Shown: piece after piece, positions 1,583 through 55,805 of the stretch
Layout of the letters: the number at the start of each line of letters is the position of its first letter
Numbering within the stretch: the stretch's first letter is position 1
Origin: an uncultured virus (IMG/VR IMGVR_UViG_3300005937_000013)
Lineage: Duplodnaviria; Heunggongvirae; Uroviricota; Caudoviricetes
Length of the DNA: 64,000 nucleotides
Virus record (IMG/VR): IMGVR_UViG_3300005937_000013
Direction: 5' to 3' (one strand)
The notes under the pieces: generated by a model
The model's input: only the letters and a program-made list of their open reading frames with translations
Databases searched by the model: none
Told to the model about the DNA's origin: nothing
Position numbers and translations under genes: made by a program

Positions 1583-2071
1583 CTAGCGGCCCTTGCCGCT
1601 TACCCAGACAGCGTTGCGGGTGGAGCCCGAACGGTGGACCTTCTCCGCCTTGCGGAGACGCCACACGCTCTCGTAGGCGAGCTGACGGGTGCAGTCCACG
1701 GCCTCGGCCACCTGCACGAGGGTCAGACCCTCCTTGCCCGACGCCTTGATCACCTCGAGGATCTTGGCGTCCCGCTCCACGACGTCCTCCGAGCGCCGAC
1801 CACCAGCGCCCACCGGCTTCACGATGCCAGGACCATCGCGCCGTGCCTTGCCCTCGTTGACGAGCTTGGTGACGGCCTTGCGGGCCGTGTCCTGGGTGAC
1901 GCCAGCCTGTGCGGCCAGGTCCTTCACCGCGATCCCCTCGGCGCCCGAGCTCTTGACGAGCTTGGTGATCTTCTCGAGCGGGGTCGCAGCCTTGGTGGTC
2001 TTGGCCGCCCGCTTGGCGGGCGCCTTCTTCGTGCCCGCCTTCTTGGCGGGTGCCTTGGTCCCTGCTGGCAT
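1583..2071 (-). CDS. Histone-like DNA-binding protein (PAKKA tail plus two winged-helix-like domains)
   Basis: N-terminal KAPAKKAGTKKAPAKRAAK; two HTH-like repeats (VKDLAAQAGVTQDTARKAV, LVQVAEAVDCTRQLAYESVW). Confidence 0.7.
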   Translation of the reverse strand: MPAGTKAPAKKAGTKKAPAKRAAKTTKAATPLEKITKLVKSSGAEGIAVKDLAAQAGVTQDTARKAVTKLVNEGKARRDGPGIVKPVGAGGRRSEDVVERDAKILEVIKASGKEGLTLVQVAEAVDCTRQLAYESVWRLRKAEKVHRSGSTRNAVWVSGKGR

Positions 2072-2107: not shown

Positions 2108-3358
2108 TCATTGTATCACAGCCGTCTTGTAGCTGTTGGTGAAGTCGAGCAGATGTTCCCGATCACCGATCATCTCGCCCGTGTATCCGCCCGGCTCGCC
2201 CAGGATCGCGTTCCTGACCCACCCCGAGATCCAGCGTCCACAGTCCACCGGGATGCCCTTGCCCCACGTCTGGCGGATGATCCCCCGCTGGTCCCTGAAC
2301 GACTCGATGAGCCAGGAGTCGGGGAACCCCATGATCCGGGCTACCTCACGGTGGGTAAGGCCACGATCCTGCATCGGGTGGAGGACCGACTCTAACCCAG
2401 CACCCGTGATGACGCGGGCAGGTTCCTTCCATCTCCACCGGGTGAGTTGACTCGCACCACACCAGAAACGTGGCTCGGTCTCCCCGTCGTAGACCCGCAT
2501 CAGGTTCGGTGCGCGGGTGGCCCAGCTCTTGTGAAGGTCGCCATAGATCCGCCAATACTTGAGCATCCGCTGCTGCAGCCGCTCTCCCTCCAACCAGGGA
2601 CCCGTCTCGTCGGTGATGAGGTCGAGCGACTTCCTGATGTACGTGGAGTCGTAGTATTCGTGCCCGTCCACGTAGCCACTTCGTGACCTTCTCGGCTCGG
2701 CCCACCAGGATGCCTCCTCGGTGTAGGGCTGGGGCTCGTACTGGAACCACTCGAGCTCGAGCAGGTCACCGATCACCGACTCGAGCGAGGGGATCCGCTC
2801 GACCTTGGGTGGCTCGATCCCGAAGGGGATCTGCGTGAGCACCCAGAAGTACCGCTTTCTCTGGGCACACCCGCCCACGCTCACGGCGTTGTGCAGCACG
2901 TGGTAGAGGGTCCACCGTCTCCCCGTGATCGTCTCCACCTTGTCACGGAGAGACTGCATGAGTGACTGGCCCTTCTTGAACGCGGCCTGGACGCTCTCGA
3001 ACACCATGACCTGGGGATAGCACCGGGCACCGTACTCGGCGAACGCCCACATGCAGTCGTTGATCTTCGAGTCCATCCCCCGGAACGCCTTGGGCGAGAG
3101 GGTGGAGAACCCGGAACACGGTGGGTTGCCGAACACGTAGTTCACCGCGACGGGTTCCCACTCCGCGGGGTCGCTCACCTGGGACGCCCACTGGTACCCG
3201 AGCAGGTGCCGGTTGGCCTCACAGTTGAACACCCCGAAGCCACCCTTCATCTCACGCTTACCCACGAGTCGGAATCCCGCCTGGACCGTGCCGAGGGTGA
3301 ACCCCCCGGCAAAGCCCTGGCAGTCAACCGCGGTGACGTCAGCTAGGGGCTGGGTCAT
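2108..3358 (-). CDS. DNA cytosine-C5 methyltransferase-like enzyme with atypical cofactor motifs
   Basis: Motif IV GNPPC(81)SGFS, VI FE(121)SV, VIII QKRKRYF, IX HREVARIMGFP, X WGKGIP; motif I reads DCQGFAGG. Confidence 0.85.
   Translation of the reverse strand: MTQPLADVTAVDCQGFAGGFTLGTVQAGFRLVGKREMKGGFGVFNCEANRHLLGYQWASQVSDPAEWEPVAVNYVFGNPPCSGFSTLSPKAFRGMDSKINDCMWAFAEYGARCYPQVMVFESVQAAFKKGQSLMQSLRDKVETITGRRWTLYHVLHNAVSVGGCAQRKRYFWVLTQIPFGIEPPKVERIPSLESVIGDLLELEWFQYEPQPYTEEASWWAEPRRSRSGYVDGHEYYDSTYIRKSLDLITDETGPWLEGERLQQRMLKYWRIYGDLHKSWATRAPNLMRVYDGETEPRFWCGASQLTRWRWKEPARVITGAGLESVLHPMQDRGLTHREVARIMGFPDSWLIESFRDQRGIIRQTWGKGIPVDCGRWISGWVRNAILGEPGGYTGEMIGDREHLLDFTNSYKTAVIQ
2110..2118 (-). promoter_or_regulatory. 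Extended -10 promoter (TGA-TACAAT) upstream of the histone-like gene
   Basis: Minus strand reads TGTGATACAAT about 40 nt before the ATG at 2071. Confidence 0.5.
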
Positions 3359-3965
3359 GCCCGGCCGTCACTAGGTAGTTGATCCGTCCGCAATAGCACT
3401 TAAACGGCACGGCGAGCCTGTCCTCCTCGCGACGATACCTTTCTGGTATTTCGGCAGGAATGCCGTCCTCGATGGCTCGTCCACAGTCCGGGCACTTGGT
3501 CCCGATCACCTGGTAGCCACCGGGCGTCTCCTGCCGCTCCTGGTTGATCTTCGCCTTCTGCATGTACCGGTTGTAGAACTCGTATGACAGGTCAGGTATG
3601 GTCTGCCTCTCGAGCTTCGCCACGAGGATGGCGTTCATCAGAAAGTGCCAGGCGTCGACCAGCTCCTTGAGGTACGCGTCCCGGTTGAAGAACTCATCGG
3701 TAGCCCACGGCTTCCACGACACCTCGTCCAGGGCCTCGCCGAGCTCCTTGATGAGCGCGGTGTGGTTCCACGACAGGTAGTAGGCTCGGTCGTCCGCGTC
3801 CACCACCGGGAGACACTTGAAGATGTCCACCTGTAGCTCGTACTGCCGACGGAGCATTGCTCCGAGGGTGTCTCCACTGACGGGGTTCGGCTCGTCGATG
3901 GACTCTACGCCACCTGCGAGGTGCTGTGGTCGATACCCAGCATCCGTCCGATCGTCTTCAGGCAC
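3339..3965 (-). CDS. Dimeric all-alpha dUTPase/MazG-like NTP pyrophosphatase with C-terminal Zn ribbon
   Basis: ALIKELGEALDEVSWKPW...KELVDAWHFLMN; CPDC...CYC; GTG at 3965 preceded by GAGAGAGGAG. Confidence 0.8.
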   Translation of the reverse strand: MPEDDRTDAGYRPQHLAGGVESIDEPNPVSGDTLGAMLRRQYELQVDIFKCLPVVDADDRAYYLSWNHTALIKELGEALDEVSWKPWATDEFFNRDAYLKELVDAWHFLMNAILVAKLERQTIPDLSYEFYNRYMQKAKINQERQETPGGYQVIGTKCPDCGRAIEDGIPAEIPERYRREEDRLAVPFKCYCGRINYLVTAGHDPAPS

Positions 3966-5251
3966 AGGTTCTCCTCTCTCGCTACGTTGTAGACCGCCCG
4001 CTGCATCTGGACGAGCCACAACCAGTCGGCCTCGTTGGTGTTCAGGTGATCCACCCGTCTGCGTAGCTCCGTCACCGTCCTGGGACGGAGCCAGTGGATG
4101 AGTGCGCGCATGTCAGGATTCAGCTCATCTCCCATCTCCTCGGCCTGCCTGAGGGTCGGGATGATGTGACCCTGGTCATCGTACTTCGGGTGAAAGAAGC
4201 ACACCGTCCCGTTCGCGAACATCTCCCACGCCTTCGGGGTCGCCCAGCTCATGTGGAGCTTGATCGGGACCGCCAGGGTGGACCGCACCGTGGTGAGGAG
4301 CTGCGAGAGCGAGTGCCAGGGGTAGGGCGTGATGTCAGGAGCTCGCTTCTTGTCCCAGTTCCCCACGATCCAGTCGGGAAAGAGGGGCCGGATCCACTGC
4401 TTCAGAACCTCGTCTCTTCCTGAGGCAGCACGGGACTGGTTGATCATCACCCCGAACCGTCTCCGTCCCTCCCACTGGTCGTTGAACGGGGTGCTAGAGG
4501 GCACGCAGCTCCCCAGCTCGAGCCCAGCGTACTCGTAGGTCAGGTCCCACTCCCAGCATCCCGGGTGCTTCTTGTGGATCCGGGCGATGTCCCCGTAGCC
4601 CCATGCCTCGGGCTCGAGCGGTTCCCACCCGTAGCGGTACGCGGCCTGCTTGCTGACAAAGTCGTACTGGCTCACCACGTGGGACCGCTGGGGCCAGGCC
4701 AGGTCCCTCGCCTTCAGCTTGTTCCAGATGTCGGAACAGAGCCAGATCGGCTCCCGGTGGTGGTAGTCCTCGCTCCGCCACTCGTTGAGCCAGCGGAAGA
4801 TGTAGCTCACGCACCGTATGTAGATCATCCGCGAGACCCCGAGGCCGATGGTCCCGTCCACCTTCGGGATGGGCTGGTTGATCGTGTCGTTCTGGCCCAT
4901 CCAGATCATGATGGTGTCGCACGAGTCCAGGATCGGCTTCCAGATGTCCGTCATGTACTTGATGTACGTGATCGAGTTCTCGACGGGTGGGGTCCCCTCG
5001 ACGTTGATCACCCGCTCGGCACGGCGAACGTCCCCCTTGAGCTCGACCATGGGGTTGGTCACGTTGGACGGGAGCCCGACCTCACCAGGGACAGCCCCGT
5101 CGTTGTGGCCCACCAGCACGAACTCGATCTCGGGGTACTCGCGGGCCAGGCGGTTGACGAGCATGGGGGCCTCCCAGTCGCCTCCAACTGCGTTCCACCC
5201 CGCGGGGTCATACGCCTGGGTTCGCCCCACCTTCGTGTACGCGACCCTCAC
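3905..5251 (-). CDS. GT-B glycosyltransferase, probably DNA-modifying
   Basis: N-terminal VGGDWE loop; C-terminal TPKAWEMFANGTVCFFHP (GT-B K..E.motif); sits among DNA-modification genes. Confidence 0.65.
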   Translation of the reverse strand: MRVAYTKVGRTQAYDPAGWNAVGGDWEAPMLVNRLAREYPEIEFVLVGHNDGAVPGEVGLPSNVTNPMVELKGDVRRAERVINVEGTPPVENSITYIKYMTDIWKPILDSCDTIMIWMGQNDTINQPIPKVDGTIGLGVSRMIYIRCVSYIFRWLNEWRSEDYHHREPIWLCSDIWNKLKARDLAWPQRSHVVSQYDFVSKQAAYRYGWEPLEPEAWGYGDIARIHKKHPGCWEWDLTYEYAGLELGSCVPSSTPFNDQWEGRRRFGVMINQSRAASGRDEVLKQWIRPLFPDWIVGNWDKKRAPDITPYPWHSLSQLLTTVRSTLAVPIKLHMSWATPKAWEMFANGTVCFFHPKYDDQGHIIPTLRQAEEMGDELNPDMRALIHWLRPRTVTELRRRVDHLNTNEADWLWLVQMQRAVYNVAREENLCLKTIGRMLGIDHSTSQVA

Positions 5252-15076: not shown

Positions 15077-15258
15077 CGCTTCTTCTCCCGGTACTCCCTC
15101 ATGTACTCCGTGTTTGCTTGCTTGTCTCGGTACCGTGTTCCCCGGCTGAGGTGACACGCCTTACAGTTCGGTCGCAAGCCATCGGACTTTGACGCGTCCT
15201 TGTAGAAGGAGGCGAGGGGCTTTGCGATACCGCACTGCGAGCAGACCTTGGTGATCAC
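15073..15258 (-). CDS. Stand-alone Zn-finger of the type found N-terminal to HNH/EndoVII homing endonucleases
   Basis: KVCSQCGIAKPLASFYKD...GLRPNCKAC; 61 aa, no nuclease domain. Confidence 0.6.
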   Translation of the reverse strand: MITKVCSQCGIAKPLASFYKDASKSDGLRPNCKACHLSRGTRYRDKQANTEYMREYREKKR

Positions 15259-16124
15259 CGGGTGAGCTTCTCGAACTTTCGCCGTTGAAGGTCCTGCATC
15301 ACCTGCATGTACCGGTCCTCGGTCTCGGTCAGCTGGTTGGTGAACAGCTGCCCGTTGGTACCGGGAGTGTGTCCATATCCGAGGAGTGCAGCTCGCCAGA
15401 AGCTCTTGAACCCGAACCACTCGTCCGGTGGACCGGTGGGATCGTGGAGGTTCTCGATGGCCTCCCAGTCCCGCTCGTAGGCGTGGAGACTCACGGGTCG
15501 GTGGACCAGGGGACCCACCGTGCACTCGAGCATGTTGGCGATGGTCCACTGGAGCTGCCCGAACTGGAACAGGTCGTAGGCGAGCCCGAGCCACACGTCG
15601 TTGGACCGCATGTCCGTGAAGCAGATCAGCTGGTCCTTTCGGATGAGGAACTGGAGCGCCACGGTGCAGGGGTAGTCGAGCTTGTCCCGCATGTTGTCCT
15701 TGTGCGGGTCCCACAGGGTGATCACGGCCTGGCGAGACTCGGGGTCCCGCTGGAGCTTTCGGACCACGTCAGCACCCTGGGTGTTGATCCGGTTCCCATA
15801 GGCCCCGTGCATCTTCCTGTTGTCGGGCTCACGGAACTGCTCGAAGTGTTCCGAGGCCATCACCATCAGCTCGGGGTCGTGGAACCCTCCACACAGCTGG
15901 ACCGCCTCCGTCGTCGCCACCTCGGTGCTCACCCTCCTCCCGATCAGGGTGGGGAGCGCACAGTGGGGCCGCTCGAGGATGACGGTGAACCCGAGTAGCT
16001 CCGCGGTCCTCATCCCCCTGGGTGAGACGTCAGACCCGTACTCGAGCACGGTCATGCAGATCTGCCGGTACGCCTCCTGGAGGGTGCCGGTGGTGATCAG
16101 GACAGGTCGCTCTACGGTCGCCAT
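15255..16124 (-). CDS. Thymidylate-synthase homologue, dCMP-type (hydroxymethylase/methylase)
   Basis: DYPC(153), MRSNDVWLGLAYD(184), SLHAYE; Asp at the base-specificity site. Confidence 0.82.
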   Translation of the reverse strand: MATVERPVLITTGTLQEAYRQICMTVLEYGSDVSPRGMRTAELLGFTVILERPHCALPTLIGRRVSTEVATTEAVQLCGGFHDPELMVMASEHFEQFREPDNRKMHGAYGNRINTQGADVVRKLQRDPESRQAVITLWDPHKDNMRDKLDYPCTVALQFLIRKDQLICFTDMRSNDVWLGLAYDLFQFGQLQWTIANMLECTVGPLVHRPVSLHAYERDWEAIENLHDPTGPPDEWFGFKSFWRAALLGYGHTPGTNGQLFTNQLTETEDRYMQVMQDLQRRKFEKLTR

Positions 16125-17080
16125 GACAGCAGGTCCTCTCCGAACAGGGCGGCCTCACGGAGGATCCGCCGGTACACGACCTTGTGGTCGTGGTAGAACC
16201 GCCGCCAGTACTGCGGGTGTGGGACCGTCCCGTGCTTCCAGCTGATCTCCGACACCGCGTTGTGTGCCTCCTTCCCGAGAGCCACCACGTTGGGATAGTC
16301 GAGCGCTGCTAGGAGTCCAGTCAGGTCCTCCTCGAGGGCGTTGGCGATCCCGGCCTTGACCCGGAGCTCGGGTGGGAGGTTGGACAGGAGGTAGTGGCCG
16401 GAGTTTCCCGTGGGTACCGGGACGAAGGCAGCCTCCCACCGGTCGTCCGGCCTGGTGTTCCGCTGTTCCCCCAGTAGGAGGTACTCGGGCTTGGGTGGTC
16501 CGATGTACGTGGGAAACTCCTCGAGGGGACGGGCAGCGAGGTCGAGATCCCACGCGTAGCTCATCATCTCACGGAGGAGCTTGACGTCCTCCTGCGTGTT
16601 CTGCCCCCAGTACCCGATCCTCGTCCTGGTGGCAGTGTCCCAGAGCACGTCCATGTACTCGTGGAGGACCAGCTCCACCTGGTCGTCCGCCAGTAGGTCC
16701 ATCTCCCCACGTCTCTTACGTCGCTCGATGATCTCGAGAGGTGGGGCGGTCAGGTGGACCACCAGGGCTCCTCGGCTCCTCAGGAACATCTCGAGGTGGG
16801 TAAGTCTCGCCAGGTCCAGTCTCGACGTACCTCGGAGGATGGGACCGTAGATCAGCTCTCCCACGTGCCACCGGTCGCACACCACGTGCGTGTGCTGTCC
16901 TGGCCGGTAACCCTGGATGGCAAGCTCGTACTCCTCGAGGATGTCGAGCTCCGGGTCCGGGGGACCTGCCTTGAGCTTCTCGACGTCGTCGTGATGCTCG
17001 ATGGACGTGATGAGGTGGGTCAACTGCTCCACGAACGTGGACTTCCCCACACCGTCGACGCCCTCGACGATGACCAGCAT
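16112..17080 (-). CDS. dNMP (thymidylate-type) kinase fused to a UDG-like domain
   Basis: EGVDGVGKST P-loop, VCDRW; C-terminal YLLLGEQ...SGHYL...VVALGKEA...VPHPQY (UDG-superfamily pattern). Confidence 0.75.
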   Translation of the reverse strand: MLVIVEGVDGVGKSTFVEQLTHLITSIEHHDDVEKLKAGPPDPELDILEEYELAIQGYRPGQHTHVVCDRWHVGELIYGPILRGTSRLDLARLTHLEMFLRSRGALVVHLTAPPLEIIERRKRRGEMDLLADDQVELVLHEYMDVLWDTATRTRIGYWGQNTQEDVKLLREMMSYAWDLDLAARPLEEFPTYIGPPKPEYLLLGEQRNTRPDDRWEAAFVPVPTGNSGHYLLSNLPPELRVKAGIANALEEDLTGLLAALDYPNVVALGKEAHNAVSEISWKHGTVPHPQYWRRFYHDHKVVYRRILREAALFGEDLLSWRP

Positions 17081-36677: not shown

Positions 36678-36995
36678 TCACGTGATCTGCACCGTGTCCA
36701 CGCGCTCGACGGCCTGCTCAGCCCCTCCGGTGACCCTCGACCACAGCTGCCACTTGCCTACGGCCAGGTCAACGGGGCTGTCGCCTATGATGGGGGTGAC
36801 GGCCACACGGGTGTACCCCTTGGCCGTGCCCGTGGGGTCCCCGTCCCATGACCCAGGGATCCAGGTGGTGGGGCGGGCCTCGGCGTCGGCCTTGTCGGTG
36901 AAGGCGCACTCGACCGTGTAGGCGGTGGGGTCCTCCTCTGTATCCACGTCGAAGTGCAGCTTCTCCCTGGACTCACGCTCGAGCTTCACGCCCAC
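36678..36995 (-). CDS. Small Ig-like virion protein
   Basis: W..GSW...LAVGKWQLWSRV. Confidence 0.55.
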   Translation of the reverse strand: MGVKLERESREKLHFDVDTEEDPTAYTVECAFTDKADAEARPTTWIPGSWDGDPTGTAKGYTRVAVTPIIGDSPVDLAVGKWQLWSRVTGGAEQAVERVDTVQIT

Positions 36996-39900
36996 GGCAC
37001 CCTCCGAAGATCGTCACTCTCGAACCGCCGCCTGAGTTCGTCCGCATCATAGCGACGTCTCAGCTCTCCCGCCATCACCGGCTTGGTCAGCCCGTTCACC
37101 CCATGGGTGCGGCGGAGGTCGTTGGCGTCGGTCTTTCGCCGCAGACTGTGGACGAGGACCTGGAGCAACCCCGGCATCGTAACCAGGAGGTCCGCCAGCA
37201 CGTCTACCACCGCGTCTGAGGTGGCGGAGACGGCAAGGGTGGTCCCGAGACCGAGGGTGGACTGGATGAGGTCTACCACCGCGTCGGTGGTGGCCGCGAG
37301 CCCAAGGTTGAGCCGGGCCGTGGCGAGAAGGTCCATCACGACGTCCACCTGAGCCACCATCCCCTGGGTGAGCCTCAGGGTGGAGAGGTGTTCAGCGACG
37401 GCGTCTACCGTGGAGGTGAGTGGGATCTGGAGCCCGAGCTGCGACTGGACGTCTGCCACGGAGTCGACCGTGGCCTGCATGGTCGTTCCGAGGACAAACA
37501 GGTCCGCCAGCTGGTCGGCAACGACGTCCGAGGTGGCTGACAGGGCGATCGCCAGTCTCGCGGTGGCTAGGTGCTCCGCGACGGCGTCGGAGGTGGCCGA
37601 GAGAGCCAGGGCTAGCCGGGCGGTGGCGAGGTGTTCCGCGACCGCGTCCACGTTGGCGCTCACCCCGTAGCTCACCCCTGCACTGGCTAGGTGCTCCGCC
37701 ACCGCGTCTGAGGTAGCCGTGAGGGGTAGGGCCAACCCGAGGGAGGCTGCCTGTGCAGCCACGGCGTCTGAGGTGACTGTGAGGGGCAGGGAGAGCCCCA
37801 GCGAAGCAGTGAGATCTGCTACCACATCCGAGGTGGCCGTGCAAGCAAGGGTGAGCCGGAGAGCGGCAAGGTGGTCCGCCACCGCGTCCAGGGTGGCGGA
37901 GAGGTCAACCTGTCCACCGAGGAGGAGGTTGGCGACATGATCCGCCACGGTGTCGACCGTGGCGGCGAGGGGCAGAGCCAGCCGGAGCGTGGCCTGCTGG
38001 TCCGCGACAGCGTCCGAGGTGGAGGCGAGGGGCAGGGCCAGGGCGAGGGTGGCAAGGTGCTCGGCTACCACGTCGACGGTGGCACTCATGGGGAGGACCG
38101 TGGCGAGGGTTGCTTGATGCTCGGCGACCGCGTCCGAGGTGGCCGTCAGCGGGAGGGCGAGTCCTAGCGTGACGGTCTGGGAGGCCACCGCGTCGCTGGT
38201 GGCAGACAGCGGGAGTGCCAGGGCGAGGGTGGCGCTCTGCTCCGCGACCGCGTCTGCGGTGGCAGCGAGAGGAAGGGAGAGCTTGGCAGTGGCCTGGACG
38301 TCCGAGACTGCGTCCACCGTGGCTGCCAGGGGATGGATGAACGCCAGGGTACCGGTGTGCTCAGCGACGGCATCCACCGTGGCGGTGAGGGCGTGTGCCT
38401 GCCCACCCAGCCCCGCCAGGTGCTCAGCGACCGCGTCCGAGGTGGCTGAGATGGTCTGGAGACTCCCCGGTTCGTGGGTGACGACGAGCCTAGGCTCAGC
38501 GTAGGTGGTGTTCTCATACGACACGATCATGAACTGTTCGGTCGTGCCCGGGTGCTCGTAGAAGATCATCAACGAGTAACCGGGGCGCCATCCCGACTGA
38601 TTGACGATCTCCTGGACGATCGTCTTGATCTCGGGACTACTGACCTCGGTGCCTAGTGACCCAAGATCGTTGGTGGTCCAGCTAACCGACGCGGTGGTGG
38701 CAGCCCGTCCCCAGATGTCCTCGTCCAGACCAGCTGTACCGGTCCATGAGTTCTCCGTAAGGTGTCCCTTCAGGGTCCCCTCGGCATCGTTCTTGTCGGT
38801 GCTGGCAAGGGTGACCTTCAGTACCGCTGACAAGATGTCTCCACCCTGCGGGATGTTCCACCCGTTGAACCGCCACGCTGCCCGACCGCCACCGGCGGCA
38901 CCCATCGCCAGGGCCGAGACGTTACTCCAGTCGGGGATGTTCGCGGATCCCACCCCACCAGACTCAACCCCATCGTCCAGTCCGTCCGCGACCAGGATCG
39001 TCGAGGTGATGTACCTCCGGAGGGTGGCCTGCTGGTCGGCGACCGCGTCTATCTGCGCGGTAAGGGGAAGTGCCAGACGAGCCGTCGCCACCACGTCTGT
39101 TACTGCGTCGACAGTCGCCTGTAGTGCGTGCTGTGTTCCCGTCGAGATTGTAGCCTGCTGATCGGCTACCGCGTCCACCGTCGCCGTCAAGGGCAACGCC
39201 AGTCGGGCCGTGGCCTGCACGTCCGAGACTGCATCGGACGTCGCACTCAGAGGCAGAGCGAGGGCGAGGATGGCCTGGGTGTCCGAGACCCCATCGACGT
39301 TGACCGACCCGAGGTCGACCGCCCCACCACCACCCAGGTTCCAGTCAAACGGGTAGGGGCCGTCATCAGCATCGACCGTGGTCCCAACCCGGGTGGCCTG
39401 CTCAGCGGTTCCGATGATGTCCGCGACCGCGGTGGTGACCGCCGCCTGGTGATACGACCAAAGCGAGCTTGGAGAGGCATCCACCCACTTCTGGAGGGTG
39501 TCCTCGAGCCCGGCAGCCACGAGGTTGGAGTCCCCGGTAGAGTCAGCAGTGTAAGGGAGCGAGTTCTCCCAGACAGCCACCACCGCCAACTTGCCGTTGA
39601 ATATCTCGCTAGCTCCACCTGTACTCAACGTAATGAAGTCACCACCGGCACCGCCCACCGTCGCCGTCCAGTTCGCGACGGAGGCGTCAAAGTTGGCGTG
39701 GCTCCAGGTGGCAGTGTTGTAGTTGTAGATCGATGCCCGGGGGGTGGCAGTTCCAGTTGCCTTTCGAACCACCACGAGAGCCCAGACACCTGTCGGAATG
39801 GTGTTGGTGCTAGCCGCACCGGCCGACCCGTTGTGCCAGACGATCCACTCACCGGTCTCGATCTGCAGGGGCGTAAACTTGTACAGGTCATCACTATTTG

Positions 39901-40723
39901 TCACGCAGAACGCCGTCTTGACGGTCGCCGTCTCAGTAAGCTTCATCAACATGGCGACCGTCCCGTACGTCCAGCCGGCAAGGTTGCCCATTGAGAACTG
40001 GAGGTTGTCGTCTACCCCATCAAAGATCCGGGTCGGTCCGTTGGGTGGTCCCGCGACCGTGAGAGTCGCCTGGGTATCTGAGACCGCGTCACAAGTAGCC
40101 GAGAGAGCGATCGGCGCGAAGCTGAGGTTCTGGGAGAACTCAAACCAGGGGACGGTTCCAGTAGTGTCGGTCGCGGCGTTGGTGTGATCGGTCCCGTTTC
40201 CACCGATCGCCATGTCGAACTGGGGGGAGGTACCGGTGGCCGCCATCCCATAGCCGACCTCAACCACGAGACGGTCATCCTGCTGCGCGGTCTGGGAGGT
40301 GAGTGACTGGGCGTTAGCACACCGGACACCCTGTACCGTGGCGGGCAGCTCGGTGGTCTCAGCGTAGAATCCCTGCACGAGCAGCGTCCCTCGGACCGTG
40401 GACCCGTCGCTGCTCACCAACCGAACACAGAGTGACCGTCGGTCGATGTTGTCGTTACCCGAGACCTCCCGACCACGGGACATGACCGTAATCGTCCCCG
40501 AGATGGATCCAGGGTTCAGAGGTGGAGAGACCAGCTGGAACGCCAAGCACTCGTTATTTGCACCCGAGGTGACGTTGACGTTAGAGAGCTGCTCGGTCCC
40601 GGACGCCTTTCCAGTAGAAAGACCGCGGGTGACGAACCCCGTGGTAGACTGCCACCCAGCATCAGGGGTGCGGGAGAACCCTGAGACCGAGCTGGTAGCG
40701 ACACCGTAGAAGCGGGTCGCCAC
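36986..40723 (-). CDS. 1245-aa fibre-like virion protein with LamG-like domain and ~20-aa repeats
   Basis: FDGVDD...W..V...FNGKLA LamG pattern; dozens of L(S/T)AT(S/V)DAVA(E/D)xxATLxL repeats. Confidence 0.7.
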   Translation of the reverse strand: MATRFYGVATSSVSGFSRTPDAGWQSTTGFVTRGLSTGKASGTEQLSNVNVTSGANNECLAFQLVSPPLNPGSISGTITVMSRGREVSGNDNIDRRSLCVRLVSSDGSTVRGTLLVQGFYAETTELPATVQGVRCANAQSLTSQTAQQDDRLVVEVGYGMAATGTSPQFDMAIGGNGTDHTNAATDTTGTVPWFEFSQNLSFAPIALSATCDAVSDTQATLTVAGPPNGPTRIFDGVDDNLQFSMGNLAGWTYGTVAMLMKLTETATVKTAFCVTNSDDLYKFTPLQIETGEWIVWHNGSAGAASTNTIPTGVWALVVVRKATGTATPRASIYNYNTATWSHANFDASVANWTATVGGAGGDFITLSTGGASEIFNGKLAVVAVWENSLPYTADSTGDSNLVAAGLEDTLQKWVDASPSSLWSYHQAAVTTAVADIIGTAEQATRVGTTVDADDGPYPFDWNLGGGGAVDLGSVNVDGVSDTQAILALALPLSATSDAVSDVQATARLALPLTATVDAVADQQATISTGTQHALQATVDAVTDVVATARLALPLTAQIDAVADQQATLRRYITSTILVADGLDDGVESGGVGSANIPDWSNVSALAMGAAGGGRAAWRFNGWNIPQGGDILSAVLKVTLASTDKNDAEGTLKGHLTENSWTGTAGLDEDIWGRAATTASVSWTTNDLGSLGTEVSSPEIKTIVQEIVNQSGWRPGYSLMIFYEHPGTTEQFMIVSYENTTYAEPRLVVTHEPGSLQTISATSDAVAEHLAGLGGQAHALTATVDAVAEHTGTLAFIHPLAATVDAVSDVQATAKLSLPLAATADAVAEQSATLALALPLSATSDAVASQTVTLGLALPLTATSDAVAEHQATLATVLPMSATVDVVAEHLATLALALPLASTSDAVADQQATLRLALPLAATVDTVADHVANLLLGGQVDLSATLDAVADHLAALRLTLACTATSDVVADLTASLGLSLPLTVTSDAVAAQAASLGLALPLTATSDAVAEHLASAGVSYGVSANVDAVAEHLATARLALALSATSDAVAEHLATARLAIALSATSDVVADQLADLFVLGTTMQATVDSVADVQSQLGLQIPLTSTVDAVAEHLSTLRLTQGMVAQVDVVMDLLATARLNLGLAATTDAVVDLIQSTLGLGTTLAVSATSDAVVDVLADLLVTMPGLLQVLVHSLRRKTDANDLRRTHGVNGLTKPVMAGELRRRYDADELRRRFESDDLRRVPWA

Positions 40724-54191: not shown

Positions 54192-54266
54192 CCGGCTATC
54201 TGTCATGCGTGTGTGTTGGGTGGCCCGCGCAGGGAGGTTCCCTGCGGAAAGGTGCAACTAACGCAC

Positions 54267-55805
54267 ATGAAACGGAAACTGGTAGGAGGAGCCGCGATCC
54301 TGTTGCTGATCGTGGGTGCCCTCTTTGCGTCGTCGTGGTCAGCCGGAGCGAACCTCCCTGGCAACGACTTCGAGGGCAACGACGGCAACATCGCGGTGAA
54401 CACTCCAGGCAACGTCGACTGGCTGACGGTCGATGACCCGACGGTGGGCGTGGACCTGCCGACGGGCCAGACTGACAACTCGTTCGGGCAGGGCTCGAAG
54501 GAGGCCAACGTCAACGTCACCGTGGTCACTGGCTCGATCCCCAACTCCAAGGCCGACCTGGCCAGGTTCGGGGTCGCGTCACAGACCATCGACGACCAGA
54601 CGTACCTCCAGCTCTTCTGGACCCGCGCCAACCAGTCCGGCACGGTGAACTTCGACTTCGAGCTCAACAAGCTCCAGCAGCCGGATCTCACCACCGCTGG
54701 ACCTAAGACGCTGGTCCGGTCACCGGGCGACCTGCTCATCAACTACGCGTTGCTGGGTGGGTCACAGTCGCCGACGTTGACGGTGTTCACCTGGAACGGC
54801 ACCACCTGGGCGGACGAGACGGTGCTCGGATCCTCCGTGAGCGAGGGCGCGATCAGCACAGCGACGCTGACCGACCCTCTGATCGGTGGGTCTGTCCCCG
54901 CGTCCCGGTTCGGTGAGGCGAACATCAACCTCACCGCGGCTGGGCTCATCGACCCCGATGAGTGCGAGGGCTTCAGCTCCGCGTACGTGAAGTCGCGGGC
55001 CTCCGGGATCAACTCGGAGATCAAGGACTTCATCGCTCCTCAGCACGTGAACATCTCGAACTGTGGCACGATCGTGATCGAGAAGGTGACGGATCCCAGT
55101 CCTGACCCGACCGACACGGCGTTCGACTTCACCCTCACCGGTGGGGACTCGGCCCTGAACGAGGCGTTCTCGCTGAAGAACGGGGAGAACTTCACCGCGG
55201 CGGGTGTCCAGGCGAGCGACGGCTACGCCGCCGCCGAGACGGTGCCGGCCAACTGGGAACTGACGTCGTTCACCTGTGACGACGGCTCCCCGGTGACCAA
55301 CATCGACGTGTCCGTCGGCGAGACAGTGACGTGCACGGCAACCAACACGCTCCAGCAAGGTGCGCTCGTGATCCACAAGGACCGCAAGCACGCTGCCGCT
55401 GAGGGCACTGACCCGGTGCCTCATCCTGGCGTGAGCTTCACCGTGTCCGGCGTGGCCGACCCGGCCGTGACCGATGACAACGGTGTGGCCTGCGTCGACG
55501 GCCTCCTGCCTGGTGACTACACGGTCACTGAGCAGGTGCCCGCGGGGTACCACAGCGCCGATGCGGAGCAGCCCTACACGGTGGTGAACGGCACAACCTG
55601 TGCCACCGCCACCGCGTTGGAGTTCCACAACACACCGCTCACCGACGTCACGGTGAGCGTGAACTCCCAGGTTGATGGTGGCACCGCGTCCACCATCGAC
55701 TGCGGTGATGGCCCGGTTGCGACCGACGCCAACGGTGATGGTTCCCTCACCCTGCCTGACCTCGAGCCGGGCACCAAGGTGTGCGAGATCGTCATCGATC
55801 CATGA
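54267..55805 (+). CDS. Secreted protein with SpaA/prealbumin-like (pilin-type) Ig domains
   Basis: Signal peptide MKRKLVGGAAILLLIVG; GTIVIEKVTDP...FDFT...Y...E...W...C...TCTATN; GDYTVTEQVPAGY...FHN. Confidence 0.72.
   Translation: MKRKLVGGAAILLLIVGALFASSWSAGANLPGNDFEGNDGNIAVNTPGNVDWLTVDDPTVGVDLPTGQTDNSFGQGSKEANVNVTVVTGSIPNSKADLARFGVASQTIDDQTYLQLFWTRANQSGTVNFDFELNKLQQPDLTTAGPKTLVRSPGDLLINYALLGGSQSPTLTVFTWNGTTWADETVLGSSVSEGAISTATLTDPLIGGSVPASRFGEANINLTAAGLIDPDECEGFSSAYVKSRASGINSEIKDFIAPQHVNISNCGTIVIEKVTDPSPDPTDTAFDFTLTGGDSALNEAFSLKNGENFTAAGVQASDGYAAAETVPANWELTSFTCDDGSPVTNIDVSVGETVTCTATNTLQQGALVIHKDRKHAAAEGTDPVPHPGVSFTVSGVADPAVTDDNGVACVDGLLPGDYTVTEQVPAGYHSADAEQPYTVVNGTTCATATALEFHNTPLTDVTVSVNSQVDGGTASTIDCGDGPVATDANGDGSLTLPDLEPGTKVCEIVIDP

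Follow-up and report, generated by a model that had tools for sequence, protein, structure and literature searches.

A methyltransferase-fold enzyme with a lysine at the motif X asparagine position accompanies a predicted hydroxymethylcytosine pathway in actinophages

This report concerns one gene in a stretch of 64,000 nucleotides (the window) from an uncultured virus of the Caudoviricetes (IMG/VR record IMGVR_UViG_3300005937_000013). The gene, at positions 2108..3358 on the minus strand (as are all features given below unless stated otherwise), encodes a 416 amino acid protein with the fold of a DNA cytosine-C5 methyltransferase, in which a lysine (Lys367) takes the place of the asparagine of motif X. 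We refer to this protein and its homologues as the GKG family. The lysine is a hallmark of the family, and the enzyme occurs almost exclusively in phages predicted to place a hydroxymethyl group on C5 of cytosine before polymerization. The fold and the type of pathway are known; the conserved enzyme itself is undescribed. The reading that we tentatively favor is that its S-adenosylmethionine (AdoMet or SAM) site has been remodeled or lost and that the enzyme uses Cys81 for covalent chemistry on 5-hydroxymethylcytosine (hmC) in phage DNA, with no classical methyl transfer.

The protein matches the Pfam family DNA_methylase (PF00145) with an E value of 2.4e-15 (57.2 bits, cut-off 22). An AlphaFold2 model computed from a 76-sequence alignment has a mean pLDDT of 95.7, and a Foldseek search with this model returned the catalytic domains of MET1, DNMT1, ZMET2 and M.HaeIII (E 1e-18 to 1e-16, TM scores 0.57-0.68). 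Because the model superposes on these enzymes, we assign the protein to the C5-methyltransferase fold, with a large, DNMT1-like target-recognition domain. With the canonical enzymes (M.HaeIII, M.HhaI and DNMT1/MET1/ZMET2) it has in common the fold, the order of the motifs, the Pro-Cys of motif IV, the Glu of motif VI, the Arg-x-Arg of motif VIII, motif IX and the DNMT1-like target-recognition domain. It differs from them in four motifs: the canonical FxGxGG, PCQ, ENV and GN are replaced by QGFAGG, PCS, ESV and GK. The GKG family differs further in that the adenosine contacts of motifs II and III are weakly conserved or lost, and in that it is apparently virus-borne and tied to an hmC pathway.

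Conservation was examined in an alignment of the query with 150 listed of 169 cluster representatives (50% identity, HMMER E <= 1e-30), with clusters down to about 33% identity. A first-pass annotation of the window, made from the sequence alone, had described the catalytic Pro-Cys, Glu121 and the motif VIII arginines as intact. They are indeed all present in the window protein (PPC with Cys81, E121 and R167/R169), and they are nearly invariant in the family: Cys81 is kept in 132/133 aligned sequences, Glu121 in 146/147, Arg167 in 146/151 and Arg169 in 150/151. The codon of Cys81 occupies 3116..3118, in a PPCS motif IV where Ser82 stands for the canonical Gln. The machinery that attacks C6 of a cytosine-type base covalently is thus strongly constrained.

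The stretch at 2249..2272 translates to QTWGKGIP, which includes the WGKGIP motif X of the first-pass annotation, and the codon of Lys367 lies at 2258..2260. That annotation had named a misalignment of Lys367 with the motif X Asn as one of the results that would undo its claim; three alignments agree in placing the lysine at this position, which is that of Asn304 in M.HhaI. A phmmer alignment to M.HaeIII sets WGKGIPVD against IGNAVPVN, the family profile aligns with M.HaeIII in the same way, and a phmmer alignment to ZMET2 sets wGKGipv against vGNAvav. Of the 151 sequences of the family alignment, 137 have K at position 367 and 5 have R, while Q, M and S occur once each; 6 sequences have a gap there and none has Asn. 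This means that K is found in 137/145 aligned representatives and Asn in none, so the lysine is not a matter of chance. The same residue is present in 29/29 homologues that were reached independently through the hydroxymethylase gene described below.

Two further substitutions, beyond those listed in the first-pass annotation, flank the catalytic site. The Gln of PCQ is Ser in 119/132 sequences (Ser82, at the position of M.HhaI Gln82) and the Asn of ENV is Ser in 141/147 (Ser122, at the position of M.HhaI Asn120). In PMC3526304, Gln82 and Asn304 of M.HhaI are reported to abut the transferable group, smaller residues at these positions admit larger groups, and the Q82A exchange lowers methylation about 16-fold.

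Motif I is also non-canonical. The codons at 3302..3328 give VDCQGFAGG, which agrees with the DCQGFAGG noted previously, and in an ungapped alignment with M.HaeIII the Phe of motif I corresponds to Q14 and the first Gly to F16. Across the family the Phe position is variable, while the first Gly is replaced by F in 79, L in 40 and Y in 8 sequences. Motif II Glu is found in 94/133 sequences and motif III Asp in 29. Of the features typical of the AdoMet-dependent class, the window protein thus has neither the FxGxGG of motif I nor the Gly-Asn of motif X, the Gln of motif IV or the Asn of motif VI. The former cofactor region contains a set of new invariant residues, namely F41, G42, N49, R50 and W67. 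In a subclade at 36-40% identity the Gly-rich loop has become NGLA(G/A)F and the Glu of motif II has been lost, while the Cys, the Glu of motif VI, both Arg and the Lys are kept in 29/29 sequences. A distinct subclade at 36-40% identity (loci L211-L226, records G053-G085, many from genomes of 110-136 kb) has ECV for ESV, WGKA for WGKG and no Gly-Gly in motif I; it resembles the type found in Actinomycetia phage DSL-LC01.

The family is large and apparently virus-borne. A word-indexed search gave 1078 related proteins (E <= 1e-5), and contigs of 55-75 kb carry many of these; when cluster representatives at 50% identity were searched exhaustively with HMMER, the 169 sequences at E <= 1e-30 were obtained. 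In the phage collection the enzyme is present in 16 records: 13 Gordonia records, Micrococcus phage Kurnik, Actinomycetia phage DSL-LC01 and one 10-kb fragment. Among cultured phages, Sixama, GMA2 and GodonK of Gordonia carry the gene, as does Kurnik. Public records label the gene a methyltransferase. Our literature searches found no publication on the GKG family, and the paper on phage GMA2 names orf51 only as a putative methylase. Since GKG genes are routinely annotated as plain "DNA methyltransferase", many phage genomes may be misread.

From sequence comparisons and models, the enzyme gene appears to lie in a T4-style hmC kit with one extra, unexplained component. In phage T4 the pathway consists of gp42 dCMP hydroxymethylase, gp1 kinase, gp56 dCTPase and alpha/beta-glucosyltransferases. 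The window resembles it in four proteins, namely a thymidylate-synthase homologue of the cytosine type, a protein similar to kinases, a MazG-like pyrophosphatase and one similar to T4 beta-glucosyltransferase (BGT). It differs in that T4 has no component with a C5-methyltransferase fold, whereas in these actinophages (Gordonia, Micrococcus) such a component is near-obligate. In phage TET pathways, a normal AdoMet-dependent C5-methyltransferase reportedly makes 5-methylcytosine (5mC), which a TET dioxygenase oxidizes before a glycosyltransferase acts. These pathways are like the window in that a gene of the C5-methyltransferase family is tied to hmC-based hypermodification and to glycosyltransferases; they differ in the origin of the hmC, which in the window would come from a hydroxymethylase acting at the nucleotide level. 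Of the window open reading frames (ORFs) scanned with Pfam none has a TET/JBP domain, and a TET route to hmC was set aside.

The thymidylate-synthase homologue (15255..16124; PF00303, E 3.9e-20) has as its best match in the PDB the CMP 5-hydroxymethylase MilA (E 4.4e-19). It carries an Asp at the position of Asn177 of E. coli ThyA and, as does MilA, an Asp at the position of Leu143, and it keeps Asp169. An Asp at the Asn177 position is associated with cytosine specificity, and 5-hydroxy-dCMP (5hodCMP) synthases have Asn at position 169, according to PMC13326640. All 33 homologues (30 from IMG/VR together with GMA2, Sixama and Kurnik) and the window's own protein are alike in these three Asp residues. 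Judged by these signatures, the protein is a cytosine-specific hydroxymethylase of the dCMP type. A 5-hydroxycytosine (5hoC) pathway was considered and rejected, because all 34 homologues keep Asp169 where the 5hodCMP synthases have Asn.

The hydroxymethylase gene overlaps that of a P-loop protein related to deoxynucleoside monophosphate and thymidylate kinases (16112..17080), with weak matches to PF02223/PF13238 and a match to the thymidylate kinases of phrog_761 at E 7.5e-16. The same gene pair is found in GMA2, and the protein is a putative hm-dCMP kinase. Next to the enzyme gene lies a gene for a MazG/dimeric-dUTPase-like NTP pyrophosphatase (3339..3857; PF08761, E 9e-11; phrog_18650/173), a putative dCTPase. 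Its ORF is open to 4019, and the likely start is the ATG at 3857, which is preceded by GGAG. The C-terminal tail of about 50 residues resembles a Zn ribbon (CxxC...CxC), and C122/C125 are invariant in 35 homologues; Kurnik and Sixama have a separate ORF of 50-58 amino acids between MazG and the enzyme. In most of 59 loci the MazG-like gene immediately precedes that of the enzyme. A complex prediction for the enzyme and the MazG-like protein, computed with no ligand, scored 0.00 both times it was run, and no conclusion was drawn from it.

The last member of the kit is a protein of 448 amino acids (3905..5251), whose gene, with that of the MazG-like protein, lies directly upstream of the enzyme gene. 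It had no Pfam or PHROG match, and a profile search of the PDB reached T4 BGT at an E value of only 0.4. Its AlphaFold2 model (pLDDT 90.3), on the other hand, gave T4 BGT structures as all of the top 6 Foldseek matches in the PDB (E 1.9e-11 to 8.7e-9; TM score to the target 0.63-0.68). On the strength of this fold match we predict that the protein is a GT-B type glycosyltransferase acting on hmC in DNA.

The association of the enzyme with the hydroxymethylase extends far beyond the window, and it was examined in both directions. Starting from the enzyme, we searched the 50 longer records of 80 IMG/VR loci: a thymidylate-synthase homologue was present in 43/50, including 24/24 of those that are >=90% complete, and the 7 records that lacked one are fragments of 28-80% completeness. 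Among the records used, the one nearest to the window (G001) is a 19-kb fragment with no thymidylate-synthase match. Kurnik, Sixama and GMA2, which all carry the enzyme, likewise have the homologue. Starting from the hydroxymethylase, 50 of 80 loci of its clade were searched, and the enzyme was found in 37/50 records and in 12/13 of those that are >=90% complete. The closest relatives of the window's hydroxymethylase come from the same Gordonia and DSL-LC01 phages that carry the enzyme. As a background figure, any homologue of the window's thymidylate-synthase protein occurs in 476/50,697 phage records.

The gene neighborhoods were compared by clustering the ORFs of the 80 IMG/VR loci and the window (81 loci). 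The locus counts given here for each protein family are lower bounds, because the GC3-based gene picking was crude and some genes, including the MazG gene of the window, were mis-called. The gene order is constant: a RecA-like ATPase and a DUF669 SSB-like protein are followed by a variable cassette, by MazG, and by the enzyme with or without a winged-helix gene. One of the two types of cassette is a sugar type, with a BGT-like protein in at least 60/81 loci, a STELLO/RGP-like glycosyltransferase in at least 31, an NAD epimerase in at least 28 and a nucleotidyltransferase in at least 17. About ten loci have a cassette of an amino-acid type, with the amino-acid:DNA transferase ADDT (PF18724) in at least 11, an HMUDK-like kinase in at least 8 and a DSPc phosphatase in at least 7, and with an FkbM methyltransferase and a HAD hydrolase alongside. 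In loci L043, L050-L052, L055, L073, L074, L077, L082 and L083 the amino-acid:DNA transferase cassette replaces the sugar cassette upstream of the enzyme. The thymidylate-synthase homologue of the phages with this cassette is of the cytosine type, and the match of the HMUDK-like kinase is weak. Together, the amino-acid cassette and the cytosine-type hydroxymethylase predict an amino-acid-type hypermodified cytosine; amino-acid-type hypermodification pathways have been described for thymidine only.

Downstream, the enzyme gene is adjoined by one for a winged-helix DNA-binding protein of 162 amino acids (1583..2071), which has Pfam matches to helix-turn-helix families. It matches residues 454-525 of the homologue P0105 (BLASTP E 4e-11): in homologues of about 500 amino acids the same winged-helix domain is fused to the C terminus of the enzyme, while in the window it is a separate gene. 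The winged-helix protein clusters with the enzyme family and is found at position +1 in at least 22 loci. We also considered a tRNA target, as for Dnmt2-like enzymes, and rejected it as a leading idea in view of the absence of tRNA genes from the window (0 found), the DNMT1-like target-recognition domain and the winged helix fused in homologues. The Gordonia relatives have tRNA arrays near the enzyme gene.

From these observations we infer that the substrate is hmC in phage DNA, that AdoMet is not used and that the reaction differs from methylation. The proposed mechanism is as follows. The phage would replace cytosine with hmC at the nucleotide level and then decorate it, here with a sugar through the BGT-like transferase. 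Cys81 of the enzyme would add to C6 of a flipped cytosine-type base, with Glu121 contacting N3/N4 and Arg167/Arg169 contacting O2. The changes at the positions of Gln82 (to Ser), Asn120 (to Ser) and Asn304 (to Lys) would create a roomier and positively charged space beside C5. If the base there is hmC and not plain cytosine, Lys367 could handle its 5-CH2-O group, either as an acid/base or as a cation, so that the hydroxymethyl group is lost or gained in an aldol-type reaction or an exchange takes place at the exocyclic methylene.

Such chemistry has a precedent, because C5-methyltransferases deprived of cofactor can hydroxymethylate cytosine with formaldehyde (M.HhaI) and couple thiols to hmC (eM.SssI), as reported in PMC7176277. 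These reactions are like the proposed one in that activation by Cys addition to C6 exchanges groups at C5 with no AdoMet, and the engineered Q82A/N304A pockets (PMC3526304) alter the same two positions as does the GKG family. They differ in being laboratory side reactions of true methyltransferases. In the searchable literature we found no description of a natural enzyme dedicated to cofactor-free exchange at C5.

Several observations weigh against the reading that the enzyme acts on hmC with no AdoMet. The clade of the window retains the GG of motif I, the motif II Glu (in 74/78 loci selected by pattern) and an Asp near motif III, and because GG and the motif II Glu are kept, these proteins could still bind an adenosyl ligand. 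The exchange of Asn for Lys alone does not abolish methyl transfer, since M.MedI-N377K is reported to methylate fully with SAM (PMC12015181). Co-occurrence with the hydroxymethylase would be expected just as much of an enzyme directed solely at unmodified (host) cytosine. The enzyme may also be dispensable in some lineages, because it is broken in one complete phage and absent from one that is 90% complete: in a 100%-complete genome of 103 kb the gene is split by one TGA and one TAA (G065:C1:65929-67139, locus L210), and a 90%-complete genome of 121 kb (G077) has the hydroxymethylase and no enzyme gene. Finally, the enzyme is kept with both sugar-type and amino-acid-type cassettes, so that its role cannot be in one particular decoration, and a universal need for the processing of hmC is not obvious.

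The first-pass annotation had proposed in its headline that the enzyme is a natural carboxymethyltransferase using carboxy-SAM (Cx-SAM). The comparison with known enzymes of this kind does not support it. CmoX of Synechococcus phage S-B43 (SpCmoX; PDB 8YF3) is a published natural DNA C5-carboxymethyltransferase; in PMC12783734 it is described as having Arg350 at the position of M.HhaI Asn304, as binding Cx-SAM through Phe25, Glu47, Phe48 and Asp69, as making a handle for hypermodification and as depending on a co-encoded CmoA (4257 CmoA for 5615 CmoX contigs). The enzyme of the window is like SpCmoX in being a phage homologue of C5-methyltransferases in which motif X has a basic residue and not Asn, and its Lys stands exactly where natural Arg350 and the engineered N374K/N377K bind the carboxylate of Cx-SAM, in a pocket that Ser82 and Ser122 would enlarge. 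The same source documents the engineered M.MpeI N374K, as the first-pass annotation had stated; a literature search for the Dcm N436K mutant, which it had also cited, matched only unrelated proteins, and this example was not confirmed. M.MpeI N374K and M.MedI N377K have the identical exchange. They differ in having a normal AdoMet site, in needing supplied Cx-SAM and in being able to methylate with SAM (PMC12015181), whereas in the GKG family the Lys is natural and stands together with Ser82 and Ser122 beside a remodeled cofactor loop. SpCmoX, for its part, differs in its SPPC motif, its intact adenosine contacts and the co-encoded CmoA and often amide ligase; the GKG family has NPPC and co-occurs with a dCMP hydroxymethylase rather than with CmoA. 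The combination of Arg at the Asn304 position with SPPC that characterizes CmoX is replaced in the window protein by Lys367 and NPPC, and R is found at this position in only 5/145 representatives. Similarity to CmoX (8YF3) is very weak, with an E value of 0.25 for the single sequence and of 3.8e-5 for the family profile, the latter in the region of motif IV alone. Of the SpCmoX adenosine contacts, which were mapped through the M.HaeIII/M.HhaI motifs and not directly on 8YF3, the Glu is moderately kept (94/133) and the others vary. The remark that no CmoA-like synthase is visible in the window stands, as the Pfam scan of 75 window ORFs gave none; about 6 kb of the source contig lie outside the window. 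A search for CmoA (TIGR00740, E <= 0.01) in 27 complete relatives, that is 24 viral genomes of >=97% completeness together with Kurnik, Sixama and GMA2, found it in 0/27; the search detected the CmoA of E. coli, used as a control, and gave no match in the actinobacterial control C. glutamicum. In phages that substitute hmC, moreover, C5 would be occupied beforehand. It is therefore very improbable that the enzyme is a Lys version of CmoX or of M.MpeI N374K that transfers a carboxymethyl-type group from Cx-SAM or another anionic AdoMet analogue. What stands of the earlier inference on the donor is its other part, a non-SAM donor or a pre-modified cytosine, which fits the co-occurrence with the hydroxymethylase.

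The remaining alternatives concern the base that is attacked, the donor and whether there is catalysis at all. An enzyme that acts only on unmodified cytosine could patch the C that remains in phage DNA, working after replication as a C5 hydroxymethylase with formaldehyde or a folate-type donor and Lys367 as acid/base, or it could attack host DNA, causing for example a deamination or an adduct by way of the C6 adduct while hmC shields the phage genome. An activity that is directed at C and potentially self-damaging would require that the enzyme never occur without the hydroxymethylase, which is what the 24/24 near-complete genomes show, and it would also account for the constancy of the enzyme across different decoration cassettes and for its place in a replication operon beside the MazG-like pyrophosphatase. 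Cofactor-free M.HhaI is reported to hydroxymethylate C (PMC7176277), and the invariant F41, G42, N49, R50 and W67 could bind another donor. The enlarged cationic pocket beside C5 is, however, unnecessary for plain cytosine, and a patching hydroxymethylase should sometimes be found without the nucleotide pathway, which all 24/24 genomes have. We also know of no member of the C5-methyltransferase fold that uses folate. On balance we regard this explanation as unlikely, but as the main rival of the favored reading. More doubtful is a plain cytosine-C5 methyltransferase that depends on AdoMet and has motifs that drifted in this lineage; it would methylate residual phage C or host DNA. The PF00145 match above the cut-off, the GG, motif II Glu and catalytic residues kept in the window's clade, the ability of N-to-K mutants to methylate and the public annotation are all in line with it. 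Drift is difficult to reconcile with the consistent change of the Phe and first Gly of motif I, the Gln of PCQ, the Asn of ENV and the Asn of motif X, of which Q82A alone is so costly to M.HhaI (PMC3526304), or with a subclade that has lost the Gly-rich loop and retained Cys and Lys; again, C5 is already occupied in a phage that substitutes hmC. We consider this explanation improbable. The least probable is a non-catalytic, base-flipping DNA binder serving as a regulator or as a reader of C versus hmC, which would suit the decayed cofactor site and the winged-helix domain, fused in the forms of about 500 amino acids and adjacent in the window. Pseudoenzymes usually lose their catalytic residues, whereas Cys81, Glu121, Arg167 and Arg169 are nearly invariant here.

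The rest of the window (about 64% GC) is in keeping with its appearance as most of a tailed actinophage genome, and includes genes for terminase, capsid, tail, a family A polymerase, primase and recombination. Among small rightward genes, a plus-strand gene (54213-55805) encodes a protein of 530 amino acids with SpaA-type prealbumin-fold (pilin-like) domains, which may be a surface-adhesion or moron protein. A minus-strand ORF of 1245 amino acids (36986-40723), with no Pfam match, has the portal/terminase region on one side and the head genes on the other.

In a wider form, which is possible but more speculative than the favored reading of the window enzyme itself, the GKG family would be a natural class of methyltransferase-fold proteins that works with no AdoMet and rewrites hmC in DNA. 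Lys367, placed where the methyl and sulfonium of AdoMet would lie, would act with Cys81 in an aldol-type removal, transfer or exchange of the hydroxymethyl group, as a core step common to sugar-type and amino-acid-type hypermodification of cytosine in actinophages; a cytosine derivative not yet described would thereby be made or regulated. If the substrate is indeed hmC, or if AdoMet is not used, the family would be the first natural case of what is so far laboratory side chemistry of C5-methyltransferases. The hypermodification of phage DNA would gain a new step, and the enzyme would be a candidate tool for the site-specific derivatization and read-out of 5hmC. From the cassettes, undescribed cytosines decorated with sugars and with amino acids are predicted for phages that infect Gordonia, Micrococcus and uncultured actinobacteria, and such decorated cytosines bear on the evasion of restriction and CRISPR by these phages.

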